Shown here piece after piece: positions 8,586 to 31,567 of a stretch of 31,567 bases of DNA. This DNA is from an uncultured Candidatus Saccharibacteria bacterium (lineage in GTDB: Bacteria > Patescibacteriota > Minisyncoccia > Minisyncoccales > GBS-2), in assembly GCA_964530195.1 (NCBI GenBank), contig CAZGXQ010000030.1, forward strand, positions 1 through 31,567, read 5' to 3'. The notes beneath the pieces were generated by a model, which saw only the letters and a program-made list of their open reading frames with translations, had not been told where the DNA came from and did not search any database. Position 1 is the stretch's first letter. The number at the start of each line of letters is the position of its first letter. The translations under genes and the position numbers were made by a program.

Positions 8586-11222
8586 ATGACAGATAATTCT
8601 CAAATTGAAAAGCTACCTCCTCAGTCAATTGAAGCAGAGAAATCTCTTTTGGGATGTTTGATGCTCGATAAAGACGCAATTTTAAAGGTAATTGATTTTC
8701 TCTCCCCTCAAGATTTTTATAAAAGCGCACACCAAGAAATATATTTAGCTTGTCAAGAACTTTTTGCTAAAGGAGAACCAATTGATATTCTCTCCCTTTC
8801 AAATAGATTAAAAGAAAAAGGAAAATTAGAAGAAGTTGGTGGAATAAGTTATTTAACTGAATTAGTAAACAGTGTTCCTACTGCAAGCCACGTTTTCCAT
8901 TATGCAAAAATTGTTCAAAAGAAGAGGATTTTGAGAGATTTAATTTCAGCTAGTCAAGAGATCGCACTTTTGGCTTATGATGAAAGTCAAGATCCTGAGA
9001 AAATTTTAGATGAGGCCGAAAAAAGAATTTTTAGTATAGCTCAAAAAGGAATTACTCAAAACTTTATTTCAGTAAAAGATACCTTAGAAGAAGCCTTTAA
9101 TAGAATTGACCAACTCTCAAAACATGGAGGGGGTTTAAGGGGTATTCCAACAGGATTTTCAGATTTAGATAACATTTTAGCCGGTCTTCAAAAATCAGAT
9201 ATGATTATTTTAGCAGCCAGACCTACATTAGGAAAAAGTGCCTTTGCTACTTGCATTGCGGCAAACGCTGCAATCAAATACAAGGTACCTGTTGGCATTT
9301 TCTCTTTAGAAATGTCAAGAGATCAGATTGTAGATAGATTAATTTCTATGGTTTCTGGCGTGGATTTGTGGAGAATAAGAACAGGAAGATTGTCAGCTGA
9401 AGGAGAAGATAATGATTTTACTAGAATTAGAAATGCATTAAGTGTGCTCGCTGAGGCCCCAATTTATATTGATGATGGAGCTGCAACTAATATTTTACAA
9501 ATGAAAGCAATGGCAAGAAGACTTCAGGCAGAAAAAGGTTTGGGGTTATTAATTATTGATTATCTTCAATTAATTCAACCCTTAAATCCCAAAGCCTCAC
9601 CAGTGGAACAGGTTTCTGAGAATTCAAGAGCATTAAAAGCTTTGGCAAAAGAACTTAACATTCCAGTATTAGTTATTTCTCAACTTTCAAGAGCAGTAGA
9701 ACAAAGATCACCTCAAATTCCAAGACTTGCAGATTTGAGACAGTCAGGATGTTTAGCAGGAGATACTCTTTTAACTAGAGCAGATACCGGAGAGAGAGTG
9801 AAAATAAAAGACTTAGTGGGAAAAAAAGATATTTTAATTTATACCCTTGATAAAGATTGGAAGTTGAGAGTTGGGAAAATTTCTAAAGTTTTTTGGAGCG
9901 GAAAAAAGAAGGTGTATTTATTAAAAACTCGAAGTGGATTTGAGATCAAAGCTTCAGCCAATCATCCTTTTAGAAAATTTGATGGTTGGTATCCCTTAGA
10001 AAAACTAAAAATTGGTGACAAAATTGCTACAGCTAAAAAACTCATTCCCTTTGCCCCTAAAAACGAACTTTCTGAAGATGAAATCATTCTCTTGGCCCAT
10101 CTTTTAGGTGATGGTTGTGTAGTTGAGCATCAACCTATTCATTATACGAGTAGCAGTTTAAGAAATATTCAAATAGTTGCAAAAGCTGCAAAGAAATTGT
10201 TTAAAATAGAACCTCGACTCGTCCGCCAGGAAAACTGGTATCATCTTTATCTTCCATCCCCATACCATTTAGCACCAGGAAAACATCACCCGATTATAAA
10301 TTGGTATGAAAAATTAGGATTGAAACCCGCTCATACATGGGAAAAGGTTATACCCGAAGCTGTTTTTACTCTCGATAAAAAGAAATTGGCTCTTTTTCTT
10401 TCTCATCTTTGGGCGACAGATGGAAATGTTAGCGAAAGAAAAATGAAAAAAAGAAAAGCATCTACCGCTTTATTTTACTCTACAACTAGTTTAAGAATGG
10501 CTCAAGATCTAAAAGAGCTTTTGTTAAGATTTGAAATTAGAAGTAGAATTTCTGAAAAGAAAAAAGTAGGTTATAAACCATGGTATATGGTTGAAATTCA
10601 GGGAAAAGAACATCAAATGAAATTTCTTAAAGAAATTGGAGTTTTTGGTCAAGAAAAGATTGTAACTAAATTGATAAAAAATCTTGAAAAAATTGTTCCA
10701 AATACCAATTTAGATGTAGTACCAAAAGAAGTTTGGTATTTAATCGATGAAATAAGAAGGAAAAAAGAATTAAGCTGGAAACAACTTTGCCAGAGTTTAG
10801 GAGTTGCTTTTGGAGGGAGGAATTCTTTATTCAAAAGAAATATCAGTTTCCAAAGATTAAAAATAATAGCTAATCATCTCTCTTCTCCAGAACTTTCAAA
10901 TTTAGCTGAAGGGGATGTTTTTTGGGACGAAATTGTTTCAATCAAACCTTTAAAAGTTGAGGATGTTTATGATCTTACTATTCCAGGAACTCATAACTTT
11001 TTGGCTAATAATATTATTGTTCACAATTCGATTGAACAAGATGCGGATGTGGTTTTGTTTATTTATCGTGAAGATTATTATCGTCCAGAAACTTCAAGGA
11101 AAGGAATTGCCGATATTATCGTGGCTAAACACCGAAATGGTCCTGTGGGAAGAGTTGAATTATACTTTGATGAAAGAACTGTAAGTTTTAGAGATTTAGA
11201 AAAAGGTTTTTTTGAAGAATAA
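8586..11222 (+). CDS. dnaB: replicative DNA helicase DnaB containing an intein
   Basis: LPPQSIEAEKSLLG, GIPTGF, ARPTLGKS, IIDYLQL, LSQ-type VISQLSRAVEQR, DLRQSG|intein|SIEQDAD, IIVAKHRNGPVG. The spliced product would be 452 aa. Confidence 0.98.
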   Translation: MTDNSQIEKLPPQSIEAEKSLLGCLMLDKDAILKVIDFLSPQDFYKSAHQEIYLACQELFAKGEPIDILSLSNRLKEKGKLEEVGGISYLTELVNSVPTASHVFHYAKIVQKKRILRDLISASQEIALLAYDESQDPEKILDEAEKRIFSIAQKGITQNFISVKDTLEEAFNRIDQLSKHGGGLRGIPTGFSDLDNILAGLQKSDMIILAARPTLGKSAFATCIAANAAIKYKVPVGIFSLEMSRDQIVDRLISMVSGVDLWRIRTGRLSAEGEDNDFTRIRNALSVLAEAPIYIDDGAATNILQMKAMARRLQAEKGLGLLIIDYLQLIQPLNPKASPVEQVSENSRALKALAKELNIPVLVISQLSRAVEQRSPQIPRLADLRQSGCLAGDTLLTRADTGERVKIKDLVGKKDILIYTLDKDWKLRVGKISKVFWSGKKKVYLLKTRSGFEIKASANHPFRKFDGWYPLEKLKIGDKIATAKKLIPFAPKNELSEDEIILLAHLLGDGCVVEHQPIHYTSSSLRNIQIVAKAAKKLFKIEPRLVRQENWYHLYLPSPYHLAPGKHHPIINWYEKLGLKPAHTWEKVIPEAVFTLDKKKLALFLSHLWATDGNVSERKMKKRKASTALFYSTTSLRMAQDLKELLLRFEIRSRISEKKKVGYKPWYMVEIQGKEHQMKFLKEIGVFGQEKIVTKLIKNLEKIVPNTNLDVVPKEVWYLIDEIRRKKELSWKQLCQSLGVAFGGRNSLFKRNISFQRLKIIANHLSSPELSNLAEGDVFWDEIVSIKPLKVEDVYDLTIPGTHNFLANNIIVHNSIEQDADVVLFIYREDYYRPETSRKGIADIIVAKHRNGPVGRVELYFDERTVSFRDLEKGFFEE
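9750..11027 (+). mobile_element. intein (426 aa) with LAGLIDADG homing endonuclease at the RESG/SIEQ DnaB site
   Basis: Begins CLAGDT, block B ASANHPF, blocks C and E LLAHLLGDG and FLSHLWATDG, ends HNFLANNIIVHN followed by Ser+1. Confidence 0.96.
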
Positions 11223-15767: not shown

Positions 15768-16832
15768 TTACAAAATTTTTTTAATTTCATCAACTATTTC
15801 TTTCATTTTCATTTCTCTTGAACCATCAACTAAAATCAAATCTCCTTCTTGAATTTTCTCTTTTAAAGTTGAGATTCCCTCTTTTATTGTATTAAAATGA
15901 AAAATCTTTTCTGAATCCATTCCCCTTTCAAACGCTTTTTGCGAAATAAATTTTGTTCTTTGGCCAAAAGTAAATAACAAATCTACATTTTTGACTATTC
16001 TTTCTCCAATTGCTTCATGAGCTTCAATTGTATATTTGCCAATTCCAATTATATCTCCCAAAACTGCTATTTTTCTTTTTGCCCAATTAATTTTTCCAAG
16101 AATCTCTATCGCTTCTATCATTGAAAAAATAGTTGCAGAATCTGTGTCATCAATAATCCAAGAATTTTTTATTCCCTCAATTAATTTCATTTTTCCTGGA
16201 ATTGATGAGTAATTTTTTAAACTTTGGCAAATTTCAACCAAATTTAAACCCAAAATTGTTCCCACAGCTATAGCTGAAAGTCCTGAATAAATTTGCTCTT
16301 TACCAAATGTTCCCTCTATCCAAAAAGGAACAATGTTTCCTTTGTAGCTCACTTTAAAGTTTACTCCCCGATTCAATTTTACTTCCTCTGCTCTAAAATC
16401 ACTTCCCTTTTGAAACCCAAAAGTAATTTCATTTAAGTTTGTTTCGTCTTTTATTTCTCTTACAGTTTCATCATCAAAATTCAAAACCAAATATCCAAAG
16501 TAAGGAATAGTCTTTGCTAACTTTTTAATTTCGTAAGTTTTTTCAATTTCACCAGCAAAAAAATCTTTATCAAATGGAATATCCCCAACATGAGTTATAA
16601 CTAAAATTGGGAGCTGAGAATTTTTTATTAAAAAATTTAATCTCTTTATTTCCCTTTCTTTTTTTAGTTCGGAATCTAAAATTAGAACATCTTTACCAAT
16701 TCTAAAGTGAGGGCTTAAAACACATTTTATTGCCTCTTTAGCGCAAACCCTTCCTTCTCCAGTAATAATTACTACTTTTGGTTTTTTAAATACTATTTGA
16801 AAATCTTTAAAAAAATTAAAAATTTCACTCAT
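15768..16832 (-). CDS. MurF-like Mur ligase with degenerate active-site motifs
   Basis: Fold motifs LVLNFDD, IIDD, KIAVLGD and LILV.GSR place it in MurF, but the P-loop reads ITGEGRVCAKE (no GKT). Confidence 0.75.
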   Translation of the reverse strand: MSEIFNFFKDFQIVFKKPKVVIITGEGRVCAKEAIKCVLSPHFRIGKDVLILDSELKKEREIKRLNFLIKNSQLPILVITHVGDIPFDKDFFAGEIEKTYEIKKLAKTIPYFGYLVLNFDDETVREIKDETNLNEITFGFQKGSDFRAEEVKLNRGVNFKVSYKGNIVPFWIEGTFGKEQIYSGLSAIAVGTILGLNLVEICQSLKNYSSIPGKMKLIEGIKNSWIIDDTDSATIFSMIEAIEILGKINWAKRKIAVLGDIIGIGKYTIEAHEAIGERIVKNVDLLFTFGQRTKFISQKAFERGMDSEKIFHFNTIKEGISTLKEKIQEGDLILVDGSREMKMKEIVDEIKKIL

Positions 16833-18393
16833 AGTCAGGTGGAATTTGATAGTAACTGATTAAATATTCAATTAGTTCTTTGGCGATTAGAGTTGTAGAA
16901 ACTCCTGCAGCTTGGGCCCTGGGATTGTCTAATTTTACTAAAAAAATAAATTTTGGTTGAAAAGCAGGAATCCATCCAACAAAACTTTGCCAAGTTTTTT
17001 CTGAATAACCTTTCTTTTTAATTCCCAAACTTGAAAAAGGAATTTGAGAAGTTCCAGTTTTTCCTGCAATGAAATAACCTTGAATTTTAGCTCTTCTTCC
17101 ATATCCTTCTTCTACTACCCTTTGACACATTTGACTTAGCACAAAAGAGGTATCCTTTGAAATTACTCTCTTTTCTTCAAAAGCTTTTCCCTCTTCTAAC
17201 AACAAATGAGGTTTAACTAACATTCCTCCATTTGCAACAGCTGAAAGAGCTTTCATTACTTGAATTGGAGTTACCTCAATTCCTTGTCCAAAAGAAGCAG
17301 TTGCAAAATTGATTTCATAACCTTTTTTGAATTCCTTGTTTTCTGAGCAAATTTCAGGTAAATCAATTCCAGTTTTTTCAAAAATTCCAAAATTGGTTAA
17401 ATATTTAAGAAAAAGTTCATGTCCAAGCTGTTTTTCTGCAAAAACAGCACCGGTATTAATTGACCACATTAAAACCTCTGTCATGTTTTTTTTACCCCAA
17501 ACTCTATTTTCAAAATTTCTTATTGTCCATCCTCCAATTTTTACAAATCCCTCATCAATATAGGTTGTTTCAGGAGTAATTCTTTTCTCTTCCAAAGCTG
17601 CAGCCATTGTAATTATTTTAAAAATTGATCCAGGCTCAAAAGTTTTTTGAGTTGCTCCGTTTTTAAAGATTTCTAAATTTTCTTCTTCCCAGTATTTGTT
17701 TGGATCAAAGGTTGGAAAATTTGCTAAAGCCAATATTTCTCCATTTTTTGGATTCATTACAATTATTTGCCCCCCTTCAATTGCCAGCTTTTCTTTAGCT
17801 TCTTCCAAAAGTTTTTCTGCTTTAAATTGTAATCTGTAATCTAAAGTAAGGGTAATATCCTTTCCTTCTTTTAAAATATCATTGTAATATTGTTCTATTC
17901 CATACTGCCCCTCCCCTTCTTCATTTACAAACCCAACGACTTGAGCTGCTAATTTTTCATGAGGATAATATCTTATCTTTTCCTCTCCAATAAAAACTCC
18001 CTTAATGGGTAAGCTTCTTAGTTTAGTTACTTCTTCTTCGTTCAATTTCTTTTTTAGAACAAAGAAAGAACTATTTTTTTCTAGATTTTCTAAAATATAA
18101 TTTTTTTCTAAATTTAAAATTTCGCTTAATTTTTCAACCGCTTCTTTGTTTTCTTTAACCTGTTTTGGATTTACCAAAACAAAAAATGAGGTAATGTTTG
18201 TTGCTAATTCTTCACCACCTCTAAAAAAAATTTTTCCTCTTTCTATAAATTTATCAGCAAAATTGGCACGAAGTCCTTCTGAAAGAGCTTGATACATTTC
18301 TCCATTTATAATCTGAAGATTAAACAATCTCCAAATAATGAAAATCAATAAAACTAAAAAAAGAAAATTGACAAAGATTACTCTTTCTTTCAT
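16825..18393 (-). CDS. ftsI: class B penicillin-binding protein (FtsI/PBP2-type transpeptidase)
   Basis: N-terminal TM, RYYPHEKLAAQVVGFV, SxxK (EPGSIFK), SxN (WSINT), KTG (AGKTGT). Sits in the mraZ cluster. Confidence 0.9.
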   Translation of the reverse strand: MKERVIFVNFLFLVLLIFIIWRLFNLQIINGEMYQALSEGLRANFADKFIERGKIFFRGGEELATNITSFFVLVNPKQVKENKEAVEKLSEILNLEKNYILENLEKNSSFFVLKKKLNEEEVTKLRSLPIKGVFIGEEKIRYYPHEKLAAQVVGFVNEEGEGQYGIEQYYNDILKEGKDITLTLDYRLQFKAEKLLEEAKEKLAIEGGQIIVMNPKNGEILALANFPTFDPNKYWEEENLEIFKNGATQKTFEPGSIFKIITMAAALEEKRITPETTYIDEGFVKIGGWTIRNFENRVWGKKNMTEVLMWSINTGAVFAEKQLGHELFLKYLTNFGIFEKTGIDLPEICSENKEFKKGYEINFATASFGQGIEVTPIQVMKALSAVANGGMLVKPHLLLEEGKAFEEKRVISKDTSFVLSQMCQRVVEEGYGRRAKIQGYFIAGKTGTSQIPFSSLGIKKKGYSEKTWQSFVGWIPAFQPKFIFLVKLDNPRAQAAGVSTTLIAKELIEYLISYYQIPPDYE

Positions 18394-18734
18394 TTCTCCG
18401 TAACCAAAACTTCGCTTGAAAGCTCTAAGTATTTTATTTTATTTGGACTAATTTTTACAAATCCCTCTTTCGAAAAATAATTCTCTAATTGAGAAAAAGA
18501 ACTTATTTTACTAAAAGTTATTTCTAAAGTTTCAATTTCTTTCGAAAGTTTTTCAATTTCTACTTGATACTTTTGCTTGAAAGCACTTTCTTTCAATATC
18601 AAATAAACATTAATCAAGAGGAGAAAAAAGAGAGTTATAAAAAGTATAACTTGAAAAGCAAAGAACCTCTTAAGTGAAATTTTTGGAAATTTTGGTAAAG
18701 AAATTATTTTGAAAGAGAGTGATTGTACCTTCAT
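18390..18734 (-). CDS. FtsL-like cell division protein
   Basis: Short cytoplasmic N-terminus, one TM, then a coiled coil. Occupies the ftsL position between rsmH and ftsI with 4-nt overlaps. Confidence 0.65.
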   Translation of the reverse strand: MKVQSLSFKIISLPKFPKISLKRFFAFQVILFITLFFLLLINVYLILKESAFKQKYQVEIEKLSKEIETLEITFSKISSFSQLENYFSKEGFVKISPNKIKYLELSSEVLVTEK

Positions 18735-19606
18735 ATTTTTTCTCCAGCTCTTAATTTTGCTGATCTTGCGCTTGGGTTAAGTTTTATTTCAAGTTGAGAG
18801 GGAAAAATTGGCTTTTTTGTTAAAATTTTCATTTGTTTTCTCTTTTCACTTTCTTTAAAAAAATTTTTTACAATTTTATCCTCTAAAGAATGGAACGAAA
18901 TTACCACCAATCTTCCTCCTTTTTCTAAAATTTCTAACGCTTGGGGTAGGGCTTTTTGAAGATTTTCTAACTCGGCATTCACAGCAATTCTTAGGGCTTG
19001 AAATGTCTTGGTAGCAAAATGAATTTTTCTTCTTTGATACCAAATGGGTGTTGCTTTCTTTATGATTTCAACTAACTGAAATGTTGTTTCAATAGGTTTC
19101 CTTTTTCTCTCTTTTACAATCTCTTTTGCAATTTTTTTTGCAAATCTTTCTTCTCCATATTTTCTTAAAATTTCGCAAATTTCTTTTTCTGAAAGCTCAT
19201 TAACTAAATCTTTGGCAGTCTTCCCTTTTTGAGAGTAACTCATAATTAATGGTTCGTTCTTCAAAAAAGTAAAACCTCTTTTTGATTCTTTTAGATGCCA
19301 GCTTGAAAGTCCCAAGTCAAACAAAATTCCAGAAACTTTTTCGAATTTTTCTTTTTCAACAATTTCTTTCAAATTCGAATAAGAGTCGCAAACTAAGATT
19401 AATCTCTTCAATTCTTTAAATCTTTCCTTACAAATTTCAAACAATTTTTTATCTATTTCAATCCCCAAAACTTTCCCCTTTGGTCCATTTCTTTTTAAAA
19501 TCTCTATTGTGTGTCCCCCCTCTCCAAAGGTACAGTCTATAAAATTTTCATTTGATTTTGGATCTAAATATTCAATTACTTCATTTTTTAAAACTGAAAG
19601 GTGCAT
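18731..19606 (-). CDS. rsmH: 16S rRNA m4C1402 methyltransferase
   Basis: MHLSVL.NE, DCTFGEGGHT, FDLGLSS, FQALRIAVNAEL, VISFHSLED, NPSARSAKLR. Confidence 0.97.
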   Translation of the reverse strand: MHLSVLKNEVIEYLDPKSNENFIDCTFGEGGHTIEILKRNGPKGKVLGIEIDKKLFEICKERFKELKRLILVCDSYSNLKEIVEKEKFEKVSGILFDLGLSSWHLKESKRGFTFLKNEPLIMSYSQKGKTAKDLVNELSEKEICEILRKYGEERFAKKIAKEIVKERKRKPIETTFQLVEIIKKATPIWYQRRKIHFATKTFQALRIAVNAELENLQKALPQALEILEKGGRLVVISFHSLEDKIVKNFFKESEKRKQMKILTKKPIFPSQLEIKLNPSARSAKLRAGEKI

Positions 19607-19609
19607 TTT

Positions 19610-20041
19610 TTAAATTCCTAATTCTTTTAATTTTTCTGCGATATCTTTTGTAATTTCTTCGGTTTTCTTTTTATATTCCTTCCATCTTTCTTCGTCCCAA
19701 ATTTCAATTCGATTTGAAAGACCTAAAATTGCCACATTTTTTTTCAAAAAAGCATATGATTTAAGATAATCTGGAATCAAAATTCTTCCCAACTTATCGA
19801 AAGTGACATCCACCGCTCCAGAAAGAACAATTCTTACAAAACTTCTTGCTTCACTTGTGGAGGTTGGAAGATTTTCTAATTTTTTTGCCAACTTTTTCCA
19901 CTCATTTAATGGATACAACACCAAACAATTATCTATTCCTCTTGTTAAAACAGCCTTTTTTCCCAAAGCTTTTCTAAATTTTGCTGGAATTGCGAGTCGT
20001 TTTTTTTCGTCTATTGAATAAACATATTCTCCTATAAACAT
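19610..20041 (-). CDS. mraZ: division/cell wall cluster repressor MraZ (start moved to ATG 20041)
   Basis: MFIGEY..SIDEKKRLAIPAKFR ... DKLGRILIP ... GLSNRIEIWD. Confidence 0.96.
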   Translation of the reverse strand: MFIGEYVYSIDEKKRLAIPAKFRKALGKKAVLTRGIDNCLVLYPLNEWKKLAKKLENLPTSTSEARSFVRIVLSGAVDVTFDKLGRILIPDYLKSYAFLKKNVAILGLSNRIEIWDEERWKEYKKKTEEITKDIAEKLKELGI

Positions 20042-20066
20042 GATTTTCCACAAAAGATGATTATTA

Positions 20067-20129
20067 TCCCAAAGTTTTCCACAATTTCCCACTCAATTCC
20101 AAGATATCTTTTTTAAATTTAAAAGTCAA
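20067..20129 (-). promoter_or_regulatory. mraZ promoter and three MraZ-type direct repeats
   Basis: TTGACT (20129-24), 17 nt, TATCTT (20106-01). Downstream GTGGGA / GTGGAA / TTGGGA at exact 10-bp period (20092, 20082, 20072). Confidence 0.75.
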
Positions 20130-20242: not shown

Positions 20243-22816
20243 TTATTTCTTAATTATTGAAAAAGTAGTTGGATCAATTTCAATTCTTTCTCCTCTTTTA
20301 ATCTCTTTTCTTAATATTGCCTCAGCTAAAAGATTGCTAATTTTGTTTTCAATTACTCTTTCCATTTGCCTTGCTCCAAATTCAGGGGTATAAGAAAGTT
20401 CAACTATCTTTTCTTTTAACTTCTGAGTGATGATGAATTCAATTTCTTTTGCTTTTAATTGTTTTTGAATTTTCTTTAATAAAAGTTCGGCAATATCTAA
20501 AAGATTTTCTTTTGTTAAGGGTTTGTATAAAACAACTGCATCAAATCTATTTAATAACTCTGGTCTGAAAATTCCTTCTTCGACAAAATAATTAATTAAC
20601 TCTTCTTTTACTTTTGCCCAATCTCTTTTTTCTTTCGCCGCCTTAAAAATAGTTTGATAACCGGCATTAGAAGTACAAATTATGATTGTGTTTTTAAAAT
20701 CTACTTTTCTTCCCAACCCATCTGTTAAATGCCCTTCATCAAATACTTGCAAGAACAAATTTAGAATTTGGGGATGAGCTTTTTCAAATTCATCCAATAA
20801 AACTAAAGAAAATGGTCTTTCCCTTACTGGTGTTGTTAAAATCCCTTCTTCTCCAGCAGAGCCTAATAATCGAGGTATATCTTGAACATTTTGGAATTCT
20901 GACATATCCAATCTAATCATTCTTTTTTCAGAACCAAAATAGATTTCAGCTAAAGCTTTAGCAGTTTCAGTTTTTCCCACCCCTGTTGGTCCCAAAAAAA
21001 GGAAAGCTCCAATTGGCCCCTTCCTTACTCTAATTTCTGTCCTAGCTCTTCTTAGAGCTGCGGAAATTTCTTTTATTGCATCCTCTTGATCAACAACTCT
21101 TTCATGTAAAAGTTTTTCTAAATTTAAAAGTTTTTCTCTTTCTCCTGCTTCAATTTCTCCTACTGGAATTTCGGTTCTTTCTGAAACAACTTTGGCAACA
21201 TGTCTTGGCAAAATTAGCTTTTCTCTTTTTTGGAGAGAATGGACAACAACCTCTTCTAACAAATCTAGTGCCTTTTCTGGAAAGGGAATAGCTGGAAGGT
21301 ATTTTTCGCAATAATAAAAGACATCTCTTAAAGCTGGATAGGAAATTAGAATTTTGTATTTTGTTTCAAGTTTTAAAGCAAATTTTTGTAAAAGTTTCAT
21401 TGTTTCTTCTCTTGTAATTTCAGAAACTTCAATTTTTTCAAAAAATGACAAAATTGACGGGTGCTGTTCTATATTTTTGTGAAGTCCTTCATAGGTTGTA
21501 ATTGCAATCAATCTAAAATCGGGGCGAGAAATGAAAGGAGCTAAAATTCCAGTAATGTCGATTGCTCCAGGTCTTACAATTTTTCCCTCCACATAATTGT
21601 GGAATTCATCAATTACCAAAATTACATTTTTTGCCAAAATTACTTCTCTGAAAATCGTATCCAAAGTTGATTCTACAGTTTCAATGCTTTCTAATTGCGA
21701 AAGTAAAGCTTGCATATTCAATTGAACTATTCGATGATAATTTACCTCCGGCAAGCTTTGCCCAAAAAAGCTTTTTTCTGCTAAAGCATAAATCATACTT
21801 TTTCTTCCAGTCCCAGCTTCCCCCACTATTAAAGGATCATTACAAGCTTCTCTTCTAGCTAAAATTCTTTCCATTTGTTCAATTTCCTTTTCATGCCCAA
21901 TAATTGTTGGATAGCCCATTTTTTGAACCTCTTTTGTTATGTCTATTGAAAATTTATCTAAAGTAATAGTGTATCCTGCGCTAAATTCTTTACCAATTGA
22001 CCCAAATTTTACTAAGTTCTTCCATTCCCACCACTCTCTTTTTTCTCTATCTTCTCTTTCTAATTCCTCAAGCCACCAAACTAAATTTCCAACATCCTCC
22101 AATTTTAAGTTGCTTTCGATTAAGATTTGTTTGAAAACTGGATCGTTTTCAGCCACTGATAAAAGCAAATCTCCAATTTCTATTTTTTGATGTTTTTTTT
22201 CGATTGCAATTTTTAAAGCATCTGAAATTGTTTTTTGAAAATTTGGAGGCAATATTTCAGTTTTGAAATAATTCTCCAAAATCTTTTTAATTTGTTTTTT
22301 GTCAAGAAGGAGTCTTAAAAATACAAAATTTAATTTTTGAGGAAAATCCAAAAGACAATAAAACAAAGTTGAAGAATTGAAAGGTATATTTTTTCGTCTT
22401 GAAAAATTTGAAGCCAAAATTATTACTTTCGCAGCCTCAAAGGATAAAAATTCAGCTAAGTTGTGTTGTCCAGAAACTTGTAAAATATCTTTAACTTCAA
22501 TTTTTGGAGGTAAATTTTTTAAATAATTAAAAAAATTGTCTAAGATCAAAAACAAAAACCAGATTGAAATGAAAATCAAAGAAAGTCCGAGAGTTTTGAT
22601 TTCTAACCCCTTTGGCAAAAATTGAATTTTTGATTTTAATTCAGGAGGAGAAAAAGAAAGAAAATAAATGAAAAACGAGATTACCAGAAAGAGAAAAAAA
22701 AGATTAAAAAGAATTTTTTTTAAAGTAGGGGTAAGCTTGAAAATTGGCAATTTTTCTAATTGAACAACTTCAAAAGTTGTTGTTTCTTTTATGTTAAAAT
22801 AAAAGTTTGAAGCCAT
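20243..22816 (-). CDS. membrane-anchored ClpA/B-like double AAA+ ATPase
   Basis: Two N-terminal hydrophobic helices; NBD1 GEAGTGRKS / LVIDEFH; NBD2 FLGPTGVGKTE / LLDEFEKAH, DGLGRKVDFKNTIII, FRPELLNRFD, FGARQM. Confidence 0.9.
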   Translation of the reverse strand: MASNFYFNIKETTTFEVVQLEKLPIFKLTPTLKKILFNLFFLFLVISFFIYFLSFSPPELKSKIQFLPKGLEIKTLGLSLIFISIWFLFLILDNFFNYLKNLPPKIEVKDILQVSGQHNLAEFLSFEAAKVIILASNFSRRKNIPFNSSTLFYCLLDFPQKLNFVFLRLLLDKKQIKKILENYFKTEILPPNFQKTISDALKIAIEKKHQKIEIGDLLLSVAENDPVFKQILIESNLKLEDVGNLVWWLEELEREDREKREWWEWKNLVKFGSIGKEFSAGYTITLDKFSIDITKEVQKMGYPTIIGHEKEIEQMERILARREACNDPLIVGEAGTGRKSMIYALAEKSFFGQSLPEVNYHRIVQLNMQALLSQLESIETVESTLDTIFREVILAKNVILVIDEFHNYVEGKIVRPGAIDITGILAPFISRPDFRLIAITTYEGLHKNIEQHPSILSFFEKIEVSEITREETMKLLQKFALKLETKYKILISYPALRDVFYYCEKYLPAIPFPEKALDLLEEVVVHSLQKREKLILPRHVAKVVSERTEIPVGEIEAGEREKLLNLEKLLHERVVDQEDAIKEISAALRRARTEIRVRKGPIGAFLFLGPTGVGKTETAKALAEIYFGSEKRMIRLDMSEFQNVQDIPRLLGSAGEEGILTTPVRERPFSLVLLDEFEKAHPQILNLFLQVFDEGHLTDGLGRKVDFKNTIIICTSNAGYQTIFKAAKEKRDWAKVKEELINYFVEEGIFRPELLNRFDAVVLYKPLTKENLLDIAELLLKKIQKQLKAKEIEFIITQKLKEKIVELSYTPEFGARQMERVIENKISNLLAEAILRKEIKRGERIEIDPTTFSIIKK

Positions 22817-27947: not shown

Positions 27948-27980
27948 AGGCGGTCTTTTTGGGCCGCCTTATTCTTTTTT
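27947..27980 (+). terminator. intrinsic terminator between convergent genes
   Basis: AAGGCGGTCT-TTTT-GGGCCGCCTT stem, then ATTCTTTTTT. Confidence 0.72.
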
Positions 27981-30900
27981 GAGAGAATTTTTTAATTTCA
28001 ATTGGAGAATTTTTGCCTGAAGTATTTTTTGAGCTTTATATTCTTGAAAGCTTCTTTTTCTTTCATCTACCCACTTTTCAAACTGGATTATTTTTGATTT
28101 AAATAACCAAACTACTGTCAAAGCCAAAATCAAGGGCAAGATAAAGGAATCAAAGAGAATGTTGTTTGTTAATCCAGTGGGAATTCCAGTTACAGCTCCA
28201 GCCACTGCCGTTTTAGAGACAATAATTTCAGCTTCATCTGAAAGAGAAGTTTGAGAAGTTGAGACTATCGCTTTATTTTTTAATTTGGTTTGACCAAAAG
28301 GAAAATTTTCTCTTGAAGCTACATCCGCTTTAAAAGTAATAAGTTTTGTTTCATTGGGCGCCAAATTTTCAATATTTAGACCTGTTAAAATGTCTCCTGC
28401 AACTGAAACATTGTTTATTTTCAAGTCTCCCCTATAAATTATTTTTTCTGGCAAAATATCTTTGACTAAAAGATTTGAAATAGAATTTTCCCCAGCTTTA
28501 ACTGAGATTGCAAAAACTAAAACCTCTCCAGGTTCAGCAATAATTGATTTTTCAAATCCAGTTCCTTTTGAAAGATTTCGAACAGTTTTGCTAATTGTAA
28601 AAACTCCGACAACAGAAACATTAACAGTAACAGAATCTGAAGCACTACCTCCTGGTCCATAGCAAGTAAGAGTAAAGACCTTAGTAGAAGTGACATTTGA
28701 AATTGTTTCAGTTCCAGAAATTGATTTTGTACCTGACCAATTTCCAGATGCTGTACAATAATTTGCATTAGTTGAAGTCCAACTCAAAGTGATTGAGGAC
28801 TCAGAAGGTACTGTAATTAAGTCGTCTTTTCCATTCACTTTTAAATCAACAGAGGGTGGTAAATAAGTTGGAGGTTGATAGCAGCTGTAAACATTGATTG
28901 GAACAGAGGTTTCTCTAACCATTCCTCCACCTTCTACTCTTACTTTGGCAAAGAAAGTTCCGGTATTTGAATAAGAACAAAGATTTGAAGCTGTAAATGA
29001 ATTTTGAGAAGTAGTTTGAATTAATTCAAATGAACCATCTGAAGTGCAGTCAAAATAATAAGTTAAATTGCCAGAAAAATCTCTTGAAACATTAGCAGTT
29101 AAAGAAACATAATTTAATGGCACACACCCTGAAGAAGGATTAGCAGAAAGAGAAACTGAGAAAGAAGGAGAAGAAACATAAACTACAACATTATCTGAAA
29201 CAGTTCCTCCAGGACCAGAACAAGTAATGGTATAAGTCTTTTGAGACAAAATTCCAGAAATTGTTTCTGTTCCTGAAGTTGGTTTTGAGCCTGACCAATC
29301 ACCAGAAGCCTGGCAAGAAGTTACATTGTTTGAAGTCCAAGTTAAAGTAACAGAGCCATTATAAGGAATTGTTATTGGACCATCTGATCCATTGGCTTTC
29401 AAGTCAACTACAGGATAAGGTGAAGAAACTAAAATTGTAGCTTGAGCCCAAGTAGGAGGCGCAGCTCCTCTTTCAACATAAACCTTTGCATTATAAGTTC
29501 CTCCACTTGGATAATTGCAAGCGTCAACAACGGTTAATGGATTTGTTGTAGTGGTTAAAAATTCGTATTCAAAAGTTCCATCTGAGGTGCAATCAAATTT
29601 GTAATTTATTGGACCAATAGCTGTTCCAGAAACTGTGGCTTTCAAATCTACTCCAGTTAGTGGTGCAGTTCCTGTAGCAGGAATGGCTTCTAAAGTTACA
29701 AAGAGAGTTTGGGCTTTAACTAAAATTTGCATTGAATCTGAAGCTTGAGCTCCTTTTGAATCTGTAACAGTTAAGACGCAAAGAATTTGAGTATCGCTAT
29801 CTACAGCTGGTGCTGTAAATGTTGGCTGGGCAATGTTTGGATTAGAGAGGGTTCCGCCAGAACAATTCCAAGAAAAAGTAATTGGATCTGAATCAGGATC
29901 AAAACCTGACCCTTCCAAAACTATACTTTGAGTTTCCAAAACTTCTTTGTCAGGACCTGCATTAGCTATTGGTGGTCGGTTGCAATCTCGCCAAGTAACA
30001 GAAATTGAAGGCGGGGTTGTAGAAACTATTTCTTGTGAACCATCTGGCTTTTTGCCATAAACTTTTCCTGAAAAAGTATAGGTTCCAGGAGCATCTTTTT
30101 TAATTTGCCAAGTTTTACTACAAGAGGTTTGAAATCCGCAAGATTGACATTCGTCATTTAAACAAACTTTTTCTACTCCCTGGAGATCTTGAGCTGAAAT
30201 TGTAAAGGTAACATATTGACCAATACAAGGTTCGGTTGAAGAAGCAACAGTTAATGTACCTCTTGCTGGATCGTTTGGCTCACATCTTGAATCTTGAACA
30301 CATCTTGTCTCAGATTCTCTATCACAACCTGAGGGAGTACAAGATCTTGTTCTTTCTTGCCACATTTGATTTTGAGCACATCCTCCTTGACCACAACCTC
30401 TGTCTTGCCATTCTGACCAATTTGTGCATTGACAAGTTATACATCTTGGATCGTTTGAGTAAGTTTTGAATTTGCAAGATCCACAATCACAATAGTAATC
30501 ATAATAAGTTGTTCCTTGGCATCCATCTTTTGAATCGCAATTTTCTATGTTAATCCAATTTGATCTTTGATAACAGGCATTATTTGAGCACCCTCTTTCA
30601 ATTTTTTCTCTCTGAACCCAATTTCCAGAACATCTATAATTATCTGTCCAAGAATCAGTTCCACAATCTTCAACAGTTCTCCATTCTGGATTTGCATAAC
30701 ACTGGGCATTTGAACAACCTCTTTCTATCCATTTTCTTTGAAGATATCTTGAACTTGAGCACTGATATTCATTTGTCCATCCTGAAGTTCCACAATCTTG
30801 AATTGTTGTCCAAGAAGACCATTCTAAACAAGAATCGGAATCGTAATTTCCACAAGTTCTTTGCTGGACATAGTTTCCAGAGCATATTTTTTCTATTTGA

Positions 30901-31567
30901 CCTGAATATAAACATTCATCTTGACAAGAAACAACACATTGTCCATTTTGACAAATTTTTCCCTCTAGAGAACAATCTTTAATATTTTCCCATTGACGAT
31001 ATTGATAACAAGCATTATTTGAGCACCCTCTCTTTATTTTTTCTCTCTGAACCCAATTTCCAGAACATCTGTAATTATCGGTCCAAGTATCAGTTCCACA
31101 ATCTTGAACTTGTCTCCATTCAGCGTGAGTATAGCATTGGGCATTAGAGCAACCTCTCTCTACATACTCTCTTTCCAAATACCTAGAGCTTGAACATCTA
31201 TAATTTGAAGTCCAGCCACTTTCTCCACAATAAGTTTCATTTTGCCAACTTGACCATTCCAAGCAAGGATCAGAATCGTAGTTGCCGCAGGTTCTCTTTT
31301 GAACATAATTTCCAAAGCATCTTCTTTCTGTTTGGCTTAAATATGAGCATTCATTTTGACAAGAAATAACACATTGACCTGATTGGCAAATTTTACCTTG
31401 AGCTGAACAATTTTCCCAATTTCTCCATTCTTCATTTGCAAAACACTGATTATTGGAGCATCCTCTATTGATATATTTTCTCTGAACCCAATTTCCATAA
31501 CATCTATATTCATTTGTCCAAGTATCAGTTCCACAATCTTGAATTGTTGTCCAAGATGACCACTCTA
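27969..31567 (-). CDS. large cell-surface protein (5' end outside window, >1198 aa): Cys-rich repeats, TSP1-like motif, PKD/Ig-like modules, DUF11-like domain, C-terminal TM anchor
   Basis: Manual translation shows the frame is open from 31565 to the track start at 31262. NRPPIANAGPD (PKD); two VDLK.NG...TL.WTS.N...C.ASG.WSG modules; FTISKTVRN...PGE...KDILP (DUF11-like); IPTG, TM helix and basic tail. Confidence 0.9.
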   Translation of the reverse strand, partial: EWSSWTTIQDCGTDTWTNEYRCYGNWVQRKYINRGCSNNQCFANEEWRNWENCSAQGKICQSGQCVISCQNECSYLSQTERRCFGNYVQKRTCGNYDSDPCLEWSSWQNETYCGESGWTSNYRCSSSRYLEREYVERGCSNAQCYTHAEWRQVQDCGTDTWTDNYRCSGNWVQREKIKRGCSNNACYQYRQWENIKDCSLEGKICQNGQCVVSCQDECLYSGQIEKICSGNYVQQRTCGNYDSDSCLEWSSWTTIQDCGTSGWTNEYQCSSSRYLQRKWIERGCSNAQCYANPEWRTVEDCGTDSWTDNYRCSGNWVQREKIERGCSNNACYQRSNWINIENCDSKDGCQGTTYYDYYCDCGSCKFKTYSNDPRCITCQCTNWSEWQDRGCGQGGCAQNQMWQERTRSCTPSGCDRESETRCVQDSRCEPNDPARGTLTVASSTEPCIGQYVTFTISAQDLQGVEKVCLNDECQSCGFQTSCSKTWQIKKDAPGTYTFSGKVYGKKPDGSQEIVSTTPPSISVTWRDCNRPPIANAGPDKEVLETQSIVLEGSGFDPDSDPITFSWNCSGGTLSNPNIAQPTFTAPAVDSDTQILCVLTVTDSKGAQASDSMQILVKAQTLFVTLEAIPATGTAPLTGVDLKATVSGTAIGPINYKFDCTSDGTFEYEFLTTTTNPLTVVDACNYPSGGTYNAKVYVERGAAPPTWAQATILVSSPYPVVDLKANGSDGPITIPYNGSVTLTWTSNNVTSCQASGDWSGSKPTSGTETISGILSQKTYTITCSGPGGTVSDNVVVYVSSPSFSVSLSANPSSGCVPLNYVSLTANVSRDFSGNLTYYFDCTSDGSFELIQTTSQNSFTASNLCSYSNTGTFFAKVRVEGGGMVRETSVPINVYSCYQPPTYLPPSVDLKVNGKDDLITVPSESSITLSWTSTNANYCTASGNWSGTKSISGTETISNVTSTKVFTLTCYGPGGSASDSVTVNVSVVGVFTISKTVRNLSKGTGFEKSIIAEPGEVLVFAISVKAGENSISNLLVKDILPEKIIYRGDLKINNVSVAGDILTGLNIENLAPNETKLITFKADVASRENFPFGQTKLKNKAIVSTSQTSLSDEAEIIVSKTAVAGAVTGIPTGLTNNILFDSFILPLILALTVVWLFKSKIIQFEKWVDERKRSFQEYKAQKILQAKILQLKLKNSLKKE
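28610..29700 (-). repeat. diverged duplication of a two-module Ig/PKD-like unit (about 550 bp); boundaries approximate
   Basis: Y.FDCTSDG.FE occurs twice (offset about 543) and WSG.K..SGTETIS...TC.GPGG twice (offset about 558). Confidence 0.75.
30571..31440 (-). repeat. intragenic tandem repeat of about 435 bp (145 aa), plus a partial third copy to the edge
   Basis: 30571-30673 matches 31006-31108 nearly base for base (offset 435). A 30-nt segment at 30786-30815 is identical to 31527-31556. Confidence 0.9.

Follow-up and report, generated by a model that had tools for sequence, protein, structure and literature searches.

A conserved MurF derivative with altered catalytic motifs is encoded directly after ftsI in Patescibacteria

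What can a MurF homologue still do once its catalytic motifs are gone? This question is raised by a 31,567-nucleotide stretch (positions 1 to 31,567 of contig CAZGXQ010000030.1, assembly GCA_964530195.1) from an uncultured Candidatus Saccharibacteria bacterium (GTDB lineage Patescibacteriota; Minisyncoccia; Minisyncoccales; GBS-2), which we refer to as the window. Its minus strand carries genes of the division and cell wall (dcw) type in the order mraZ, rsmH, ftsL-like, and ftsI, followed by a murF-derived open reading frame (ORF) that begins with ATG at the high-coordinate end of positions 15768 to 16832 and encodes 354 amino acids. The MurF reaction is regarded as essential and universal in the synthesis of peptidoglycan precursors, and the enzyme is an antibiotic target; its N-terminal domain is responsible for binding the UDP portion of the substrate, and its C-terminal domain receives the incoming dipeptide. 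The initial annotation of the window described the gene as an apparently dead MurF retained as a pseudo-enzyme. Comparison of the sequences supports the view that this protein and its relatives, hereafter the short form, constitute a conserved, presumably catalytically dead, and progressively miniaturized derivative of MurF. The reading that we favor, with a probability of about 0.5, is that of an intact, selected, noncatalytic descendant of the Patescibacteria-type MurF that serves as a binding module coproduced with FtsI.

Fold and catalytic residues of the MurF-derived protein

By its predicted fold, the 354-residue protein belongs to the Mur ligase superfamily, and it derives from MurF. 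The best NCBIfam model was TIGR01143 (murF; E = 1.6e-37), with a score of 129.5 bits against a cutoff of 288.6 and a match restricted to profile positions 127 to 416; relatives P0131, P0138, and P0141 scored 117.7, 166.9, and 194.0 bits, respectively. Pfam recognized Mur_ligase_C (PF02875; 44.3 bits) and, in its second half only, Mur_ligase_M (PF08245; 24.7 bits for a cutoff of 24), and motifs of any other enzyme family were not detected in Pfam or NCBIfam. The nearest solved structures by sequence were MurF enzymes. An AlphaFold 2 model computed with 60 family members as input had a mean predicted local distance difference test score of 91.3 and a predicted template modeling (TM) score of 0.90, and the PDB entries that Foldseek ranked as most similar to it were the MurF structures 4CVK, 4QDI, 4ZIY, and 1GG4 (query TM score of at most 0.75, ~20% identity). 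Foldseek returned 160 PDB matches at E ≤ 1e-3, and all of the 50 best listed were proteins of the Mur ligase fold. The model shows a predicted fold in which the central and C-terminal domains of Mur ligases are retained. The classical N-terminal domain (Mur_ligase, PF01225 type) is absent, only ~17 residues forming one helix being present before the first strand of the central domain. Membrane anchoring by this helix was considered and rejected, as its counterpart in E. coli MurF is the linker helix leading into the central domain. In comparison to the canonical enzyme (TIGR01143, EC 6.3.2.10; E. coli MurF, 1GG4), the protein thus shares the fold of two domains, the NxDD motif, the His, GD, and GS motifs of the C-terminal domain, and a position just downstream of the ftsI region, whereas it lacks the N-terminal domain, the P-loop Lys and Thr, and the NxNNxIG segment.

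The protein was aligned with E. coli MurF, whose numbering is used for the reference residues, and with 13 intact MurFs from Patescibacteria. Each of the motif changes listed in the initial annotation was recovered in this alignment. The P-loop reads TGE-GRVCAKE instead of TGSxGKT(S/T)xKE, with one residue deleted, Arg28 in place of Lys111, and neither Thr nor Ser. The NYNNEIG (NxNNxIG) segment and the part following it are deleted, amounting to ~23 residues in comparison to E. coli MurF and to ~55 to 65 residues in comparison to the Patescibacteria MurFs. The His loop (A/V)H(L/V)E(G/F)F is replaced by FDKDFF, Asp88 occupying the position of the Mg2+ ligand His188. DDxYNA (DDSYNA) is replaced by DDTDSA, GDMxELG by GDIIGIG, and VKGSR by VDGSR. 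Four further changes were absent from the earlier list, namely, Ile102 at the position of the carbamoylated lysine (K202 in E. coli), PGK instead of PGR, with Lys214 in place of R316, Asp53 at the position of the Mg1 glutamate E158, and the loss of the N-terminal domain noted above. The Mg1 position is Glu in 96 of 121 relatives. The E. coli MurF residues replaced are E158, H188, K202, R316, Y333, N334, and K432, in addition to the P-loop lysine. The roles of these residues in Mur ligases include stabilization of the triphosphate, coordination of Mg2+, and contacts with ribose and adenine, and the carbamoylated lysine is essential in MurD, MurE, and MurF (PMC3060825). As judged from the alignment, residues expected to support the ATP- and Mg2+-dependent acyl-phosphate chemistry are shown to be almost all missing or replaced, the Mg1 glutamate conservatively so. 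At the sequence level, the protein falls short of MurF in the curated score, the P-loop, the metal ligands and carbamoylated lysine, the N-terminal domain, and the C-terminal motifs, which are the features that could be tested.

Conservation and size reduction within the family

A search of about 5.8 billion proteins retrieved more than 120 homologues of ~341 to 401 residues displaying 59 to 91% identity with the short form of the window. All originate from metagenomes or metagenome-assembled genomes of Patescibacteria and, where named, are annotated as "Mur ligase family protein" (NCBI) or MurF (JGI). The N-terminal sequence K-P-K-V-I-I-V-T-G-x-G-R-x-x-A-K-E, found in place of the P-loop, is common to all close homologues. 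Among 60 homologues, 47 alignment columns are invariant, including L117, N118, D120 to T123, G177 to E179, Y182, D228, R253, E270, and H272. The LNFDDET motif is invariant in 121/121 close homologues and is mostly retained in the single-domain forms described below. The replacement residues are themselves conserved: in the same 121 homologues, position 28 is Arg in 107 and Lys in 8, and I/V102, K214, E231, G263, and D336 are present in 115, 116, 99, 113, and 115 sequences, respectively.

The ratio of nonsynonymous to synonymous substitution rates (dN/dS; Nei-Gojobori method) was 0.066 for the murF-like gene in comparison to its 91%-identical orthologue (locus L027). For the same pair of genomes, the ratios were 0.051 for ftsI, 0.16 for the permease gene, and 0.12 for the exchanger gene. 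Orthologues at 63 to 66% identity, for which the synonymous rate (dS) is saturated, gave values of 0.12 to 0.17 for the murF-like gene and 0.05 to 0.15 for ftsI. Neither the closest homologues (more than 120) nor 80 metagenome loci show any disruption of the ORF, and the identical 354-residue protein is encoded by 14 contigs from several metagenomes. These data show that the murF-like gene evolves as slowly as ftsI. Because dN/dS is low, the replacement motifs are conserved, and the ORFs are intact, neutral decay is excluded for this lineage. The dN/dS values among orthologues (0.066 to 0.17), which were proposed as a check in the initial annotation, thus argue against decay, and the lost catalytic residues, together with more than 120 homologues bearing the same motifs, support its description of a retained pseudo-enzyme.

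The origin of the short form is indicated by its position. A scan of species-representative genomes with exact peptide patterns identified short forms at loci L007, L008, and L010, in addition to a truncated copy at L012, and intact proteins of 407 to 445 residues at L011 and L013 to L023, L024 containing a split copy. The intact Patescibacteria MurFs contain the motifs GSVGKTS, NYNNEIG, LEMGADRPGDI, IPVHVEFF, EK, PGR, DDTYNA, GDMLELG, and KGS(R/Q) and score ~267 to 315 bits on TIGR01143, i.e., around the cutoff of that model. Searches of the loci with E. coli dcw proteins revealed that intact and short forms (X) share the slot mraZ-rsmH-(ftsL)-ftsI-X, with no other dcw gene after X. The position after ftsI was found in the window, in 70/80 metagenome loci with enough flanking sequence, and in the genome loci, and, over the length covered by each contig, synteny was the same throughout the 80 metagenome loci. 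Since both occupy the same slot after ftsI, the short form is the positional orthologue of the Patescibacteria-type MurF, with which it displays up to 44% identity (L011). The two also share a short N-terminal helix in place of domain 1, a loop of the IPxHxEFF type, and the GK(Q/E)Q(A/I)Y motif. Missing the N-terminal domain is thus not peculiar to the short form, since intact Patescibacteria MurFs (e.g., L011:5416-6675, L016:9965-11287, and L020:9941-11206) also begin with a single helix instead of that domain. In contrast to the short form, these enzymes keep all catalytic motifs and a hydrophobic insertion of ~20 to 40 residues between NNEIG and LEMG. One intact murF (L021:9698-10921) was found outside the dcw cluster, between the RNase Y gene (rny) and groEL and ~5 kb from murB, indicating that murF is not always tied to ftsI in Patescibacteria.

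An exhaustive profile search of 1.84 billion cluster representatives yielded 20,889 matches at E ≤ 0.001, and the state of the motifs was read in the best 150. This revealed four groups. Group a comprises ~16 full-length short-form representatives (50% clustering level) in which the P-loop region is not conserved (SADLA, NRATA, FREIS, and YRETS) and which mostly keep LN(F/Y)DDET, LD(D/N)S, LGD(V/I)xGxGK, and (V/I)DGS. Group b consists of intermediates of 398 to 415 residues (e.g., P0138, P0141, and P0154) that have kept GKT, lost the His, and acquired GDI(I/L)GIG. Group c contains other degenerate full-length MurFs (P0193, P0201, P0211, P0255, and P0277), which are scattered among intact enzymes in a neighbor-joining tree that is crude and prone to long-branch attraction. 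Together, groups b and c span 382 to 437 residues, and their loss of catalytic motifs is partial or complete. Judging from these motif states, changes in the His loop and in GDMLELG seem to have preceded those in the P-loop. Since degenerate forms scatter among intact ones in the tree, MurF degeneration in Patescibacteria may have been repeated and stepwise, as the comparison suggests.

The single-domain forms (group d) represent a further step in size reduction. Their ~18 representatives contain 188 to 245 residues (e.g., P0169, P0171, P0180, P0199, and P0203), and all end at positions equivalent to residues 202 to 213 of the short form, i.e., at the boundary between the central and C-terminal domains. 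P0226 (L114:4310-4927; 205 residues) is encoded by a complete gene located directly after ftsI and carries G-D-G-R, VNYDDET, and GKEQIY; no remnant of the C-terminal domain was found downstream of this gene in L114. In the complete genome of Ca. Nealsonbacteria ER9H13parc1 (CP179888.1; 639,534 bp), the short-form gene (L012:10001-10720) is truncated to 239 codons, contains two small insertions, and encodes GK instead of GR at the remnant of the P-loop. An out-of-frame remnant of the C-terminal domain (…LENIFQFDTINKAEKGG) is present in the ~150 nt downstream, and the truncation looks like a recent internal deletion. Thus, the C-terminal domain is dispensable in some lineages and, since some of them keep the central domain alone, the latter is the most persistently retained part of the protein. 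The series from intact enzymes to partly degenerate forms and to proteins of 350 and 200 residues provides a natural dissection of which part bears the retained function.

Possible functions of the retained fold

Peptidoglycan is probably still made by these ultra-small bacteria. In 77 loci, including those encoding short and single-domain forms, FtsI contains the SxxK motif in every case (77/77), with single exceptions at SxN and KTG. Longer contigs from the same organism carry a sortase gene ~6 kb past the right end of the window, among genes for PKD and CAP surface proteins. Peptidoglycan synthesis genes are described in the literature as core or frequent in Parcubacteria. The intact FtsI and the sortase imply that peptidoglycan with donor stems ending in D-Ala-D-Ala is probably still needed, in which case the MurF reaction would have to come from another gene or another route. 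No peptidoglycan precursor gene was found on the contig extensions (~1.6 kb on one side and ~10 kb on the other), and the flanks of about 100 short-form loci, covered over 10 kb in each direction, contained neither a second Mur ligase gene nor any further mur gene, ftsW, or ddl. The species-representative scan, which is weak evidence since it relied on exact peptide patterns, revealed no genome containing both a short and an intact form.

In the favored reading, the 354-residue protein would no longer ligate D-Ala-D-Ala and would instead be a binding module produced together with FtsI, the MurF reaction being supplied by another gene or route. The module might hold, sense, or buffer the UDP-MurNAc-peptide by its remaining substrate cleft, in which the invariant LNFDDET and GKEQIY motifs would participate; both motifs would map to the central-domain region lining this cleft in the structures of MurD and MurF. 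Alternatively, it might dock other cytoplasmic proteins of peptidoglycan synthesis to the division apparatus. The roles of sensor, binder of host precursors, and scaffold put forward in the initial annotation are hypothetical, and nothing points to a host-derived ligand; some related lineages are reported to be parasites of archaea. Several observations weigh against a binding module made with FtsI. Direct contact with FtsI is unlikely because that protein has few cytoplasmic residues before its membrane helix, and the link between the two proteins may be one of coexpression only. No RNA run containing the murF-like gene was found. The truncated copy at L012 indicates that at least one lineage can do without the gene or with a reduced version of it. 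The P-loop region is fairly conserved in the close family (G-x-G-R-x-C-A-K-E), leaving room for some binding of phosphate or another anion. Finally, the short forms cluster together only in the crude neighbor-joining tree, a grouping open to long-branch attraction.

A quite possible alternative, which overlaps and is compatible with the favored reading, is that of a subfunctionalized paralogue: a second, intact murF located elsewhere would perform catalysis, and the dcw copy would be specialized, for example, as a noncatalytic partner of MurF or MurE. An intact FtsI and a sortase imply that precursors ending in D-Ala-D-Ala are still required, and a second intact murF is plausible, albeit unproven, because the intact gene can lie outside the dcw slot, as observed in L021. 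The surroundings of the about 100 short-form loci and, with the limit stated above, the species-representative genomes did not provide such a second gene, and the fact that intact MurFs hold this very slot elsewhere fits degeneration in situ of a single copy. It is unlikely, though worth stating, that whole clades of Patescibacteria lack a functional MurF and make D-Ala-D-Ala-dependent peptidoglycan by an undescribed route, the relic, reduced in some lineages to a central domain of 200 residues, having taken on a new role as a subunit that is coproduced with FtsI and binds precursors or acts as a scaffold. The pentapeptide would then be provided by a different ligase or by scavenged muropeptides.

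The remaining explanations retain less credit. Acquisition of a new, ATP-independent activity on peptidoglycan precursors or on another substrate, in a cleft remodeled around the conserved acidic cluster D120, D121, E122, D228, D229, E231, D260, and D336, would account for replacement residues that are conserved rather than random and for the acidic groups added to the interdomain cleft. We regard it as improbable, since only half of the putative cleft is left in the single-domain forms and the database searches detected no motif of another enzyme family; to our knowledge, no ATP-free enzyme of the Mur ligase fold is known. Still less probable is a working MurF with an unorthodox site, in which Arg28 would stand in for the P-loop lysine, and acidic residues for the His and carbamoylated-lysine metal ligands. 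Occupancy of the murF slot, the apparent retention of peptidoglycan synthesis, conservation of G25, G27, R28, K32, and E33 in the close family, and the JGI label of MurF given to relatives are in its favor. Against these stand a P-loop that is one residue short and devoid of Ser or Thr, the combined alteration of K111, H188, K202, R316, Y333, and N334 (plus E158 in this protein), the unconserved P-loop of more distant short forms, the existence of single-domain forms without the dipeptide-binding C-terminal domain, and a TIGR01143 score below half of the cutoff. A simple pseudogene undergoing neutral decay after loss of peptidoglycan precursor synthesis might be suspected from the graded series of degenerate forms and from the truncated copy, with its frameshifted remnant, in the complete Ca. 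Nealsonbacteria genome. This explanation has almost no probability left and was rejected on the basis of dN/dS values equal to those of ftsI and of conservation, namely, the intact ORFs, the 47 invariant columns, and the identical protein on contigs from several metagenomes.

Gene neighborhood, related systems, and significance

The features of the locus are collected in Table 1. The initial annotation reported an intact ORF overlapping ftsI, which is borne out by an overlap of 8 nt (ATGAGTGA). It also placed the gene inside the dcw operon, and this requires correction: since no further dcw genes follow, with murE, mraY, murD, ftsW, and murG absent after it, the murF-like gene ends a truncated cluster instead of lying within it. 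None of murE, mraY, murD, ftsW, murG, murC, and ddl was found anywhere in the window. Downstream of the murF-like gene, a gap of 91 nt is followed by genes for a transporter of the Trp/Tyr permease family, a Na/Ca exchanger, RmuC, and rplU. At 75 related loci, with the first in-frame start codon taken as the start, ftsI and gene X overlap in 35 and are separated by no more than 30 nt in 8 more. Promoter and terminator scans gave background levels only in the window, the G+C content of which is ~30%. The DNA sequencing runs carrying the gene are from hot-spring and sediment metagenomes.

Table 1. Features of the truncated dcw cluster and of the murF-derived gene in the window
Feature	Position	Strand	Basis or remark
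murF-derived gene, predicted noncatalytic Mur ligase-fold protein (short form)	15768..16832	-	ORF, Pfam, TIGR01143, AlphaFold 2, Foldseek, dN/dS
C-terminal Mur_ligase_C domain, residues 215-339	15816..16190	-	Pfam PF02875; altered PGK, DDTDSA, GDIIGIG, VDGSR
Central (middle) domain, residues 1-205	16218..16832	-	Stand-alone protein of ~200 residues in some relatives
LNFDDET motif (Mur ligase NxDD motif), residues 117-123	16464..16484	-	Alignment
Degenerate P-loop, residues 22-33 (IITGEGRVCAKE)	16734..16769	-	Alignment; Arg28 at position of catalytic Lys
Overlap of ftsI stop and murF-like gene start, 8 nt (ATGAGTGA)	16825..16832	-	
ftsI, class B penicillin-binding protein transpeptidase	16825..18393	-	Pfam PBP_dimer and Transpeptidase; catalytic motifs SIFK, SINTG, KTGTS intact
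ftsL-like small membrane protein, 114 residues	18390..18734	-	No Pfam match; assigned from position between rsmH and ftsI
rsmH (mraW), 16S rRNA methyltransferase	18731..19606	-	Pfam Methyltransf_5, 344 bits
mraZ, first gene of truncated dcw cluster	19610..20092	-	Pfam MraZ

An ftsL-like gene of 113 to 114 codons is also present in L002, L005, and L114. The start of mraZ is ambiguous, a GTG codon giving a protein of 160 residues and an internal ATG one of 143 residues; the shorter version is called in most contigs and the longer in one. Upstream of mraZ, a position kept in relatives, lies a gene for a ClpB-like protein of 857 residues (20243-22816, minus strand) with a clear match for the second AAA module only (AAA_2 and ClpB_D2-small), a faint match for the first, and ~300 N-terminal residues without family match. 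Elsewhere in the window, a DnaB helicase of 878 residues (8586-11222, plus strand) contains an intein with a LAGLIDADG homing-endonuclease domain; the orthologues in L002 and L005 are intein free (457 to 459 residues). A large PKD-domain surface protein is encoded by an ORF of 1,097 codons in the window (27969-31262, minus strand), and its length differs between assemblies of the same organism (1,247, 1,349, or at least 1,051 residues). Beyond the window, this gene is followed (L119:11309-20924) by two small genes and by genes for the sortase, a CAP-domain protein, and another PKD protein. The PKD, sortase, and CAP genes look like an island for sortase-dependent surface proteins.

Mur ligase folds that have acquired other roles offer points of comparison. 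PAP11, a plant MurE-like protein of the plastid-encoded RNA polymerase (PDB 8R5O and 8W9Z), was among both the sequence and the structure matches. In this protein, the Mur ligase fold is kept as a nonenzymatic structural subunit, and PAP11 is, by analogy, probably the nearest functional counterpart of the short form. The two differ by the parent enzyme (MurE for PAP11), the kingdom, the partner (RNA polymerase), and the architecture, and participation of the short form in any complex would be hypothetical. MurT of the MurT/GatD lipid II amidotransferase (6FQB; Foldseek TM score of ~0.65) likewise comprises two domains without an N-terminal UDP-binding domain. MurT has a functional ATP site, a C-terminal DUF1727 domain, and an adjacent gatD gene, and it acts with a partner. 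A MurT-like role was rejected for the short form, as there is no gene of the gatD/GATase family in the neighborhood and the P-loop is degenerate. As far as we could find, the literature describes neither a degenerate MurF in Patescibacteria (candidate phyla radiation) nor any bacterial Mur ligase pseudoenzyme.

A second, noncatalytic role of Mur ligases has been suspected from their complexes with MurG and MreB. The family described here is large and conserved in bacteria, and it consists of dcw-linked MurF proteins that would be devoid of the catalytic machinery and yet are under selection as strong as that acting on FtsI. The finding would gain in interest if complete genomes were to show no intact MurF beside the short form. 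As the relatives are automatically annotated as MurF (JGI), metabolic reconstructions of Patescibacteria may overstate the completeness of the peptidoglycan pathway. Either the pentapeptide precursor would be made or acquired in a nonstandard manner by these bacteria, or Mur ligases would have a noncatalytic role that outlives catalysis.

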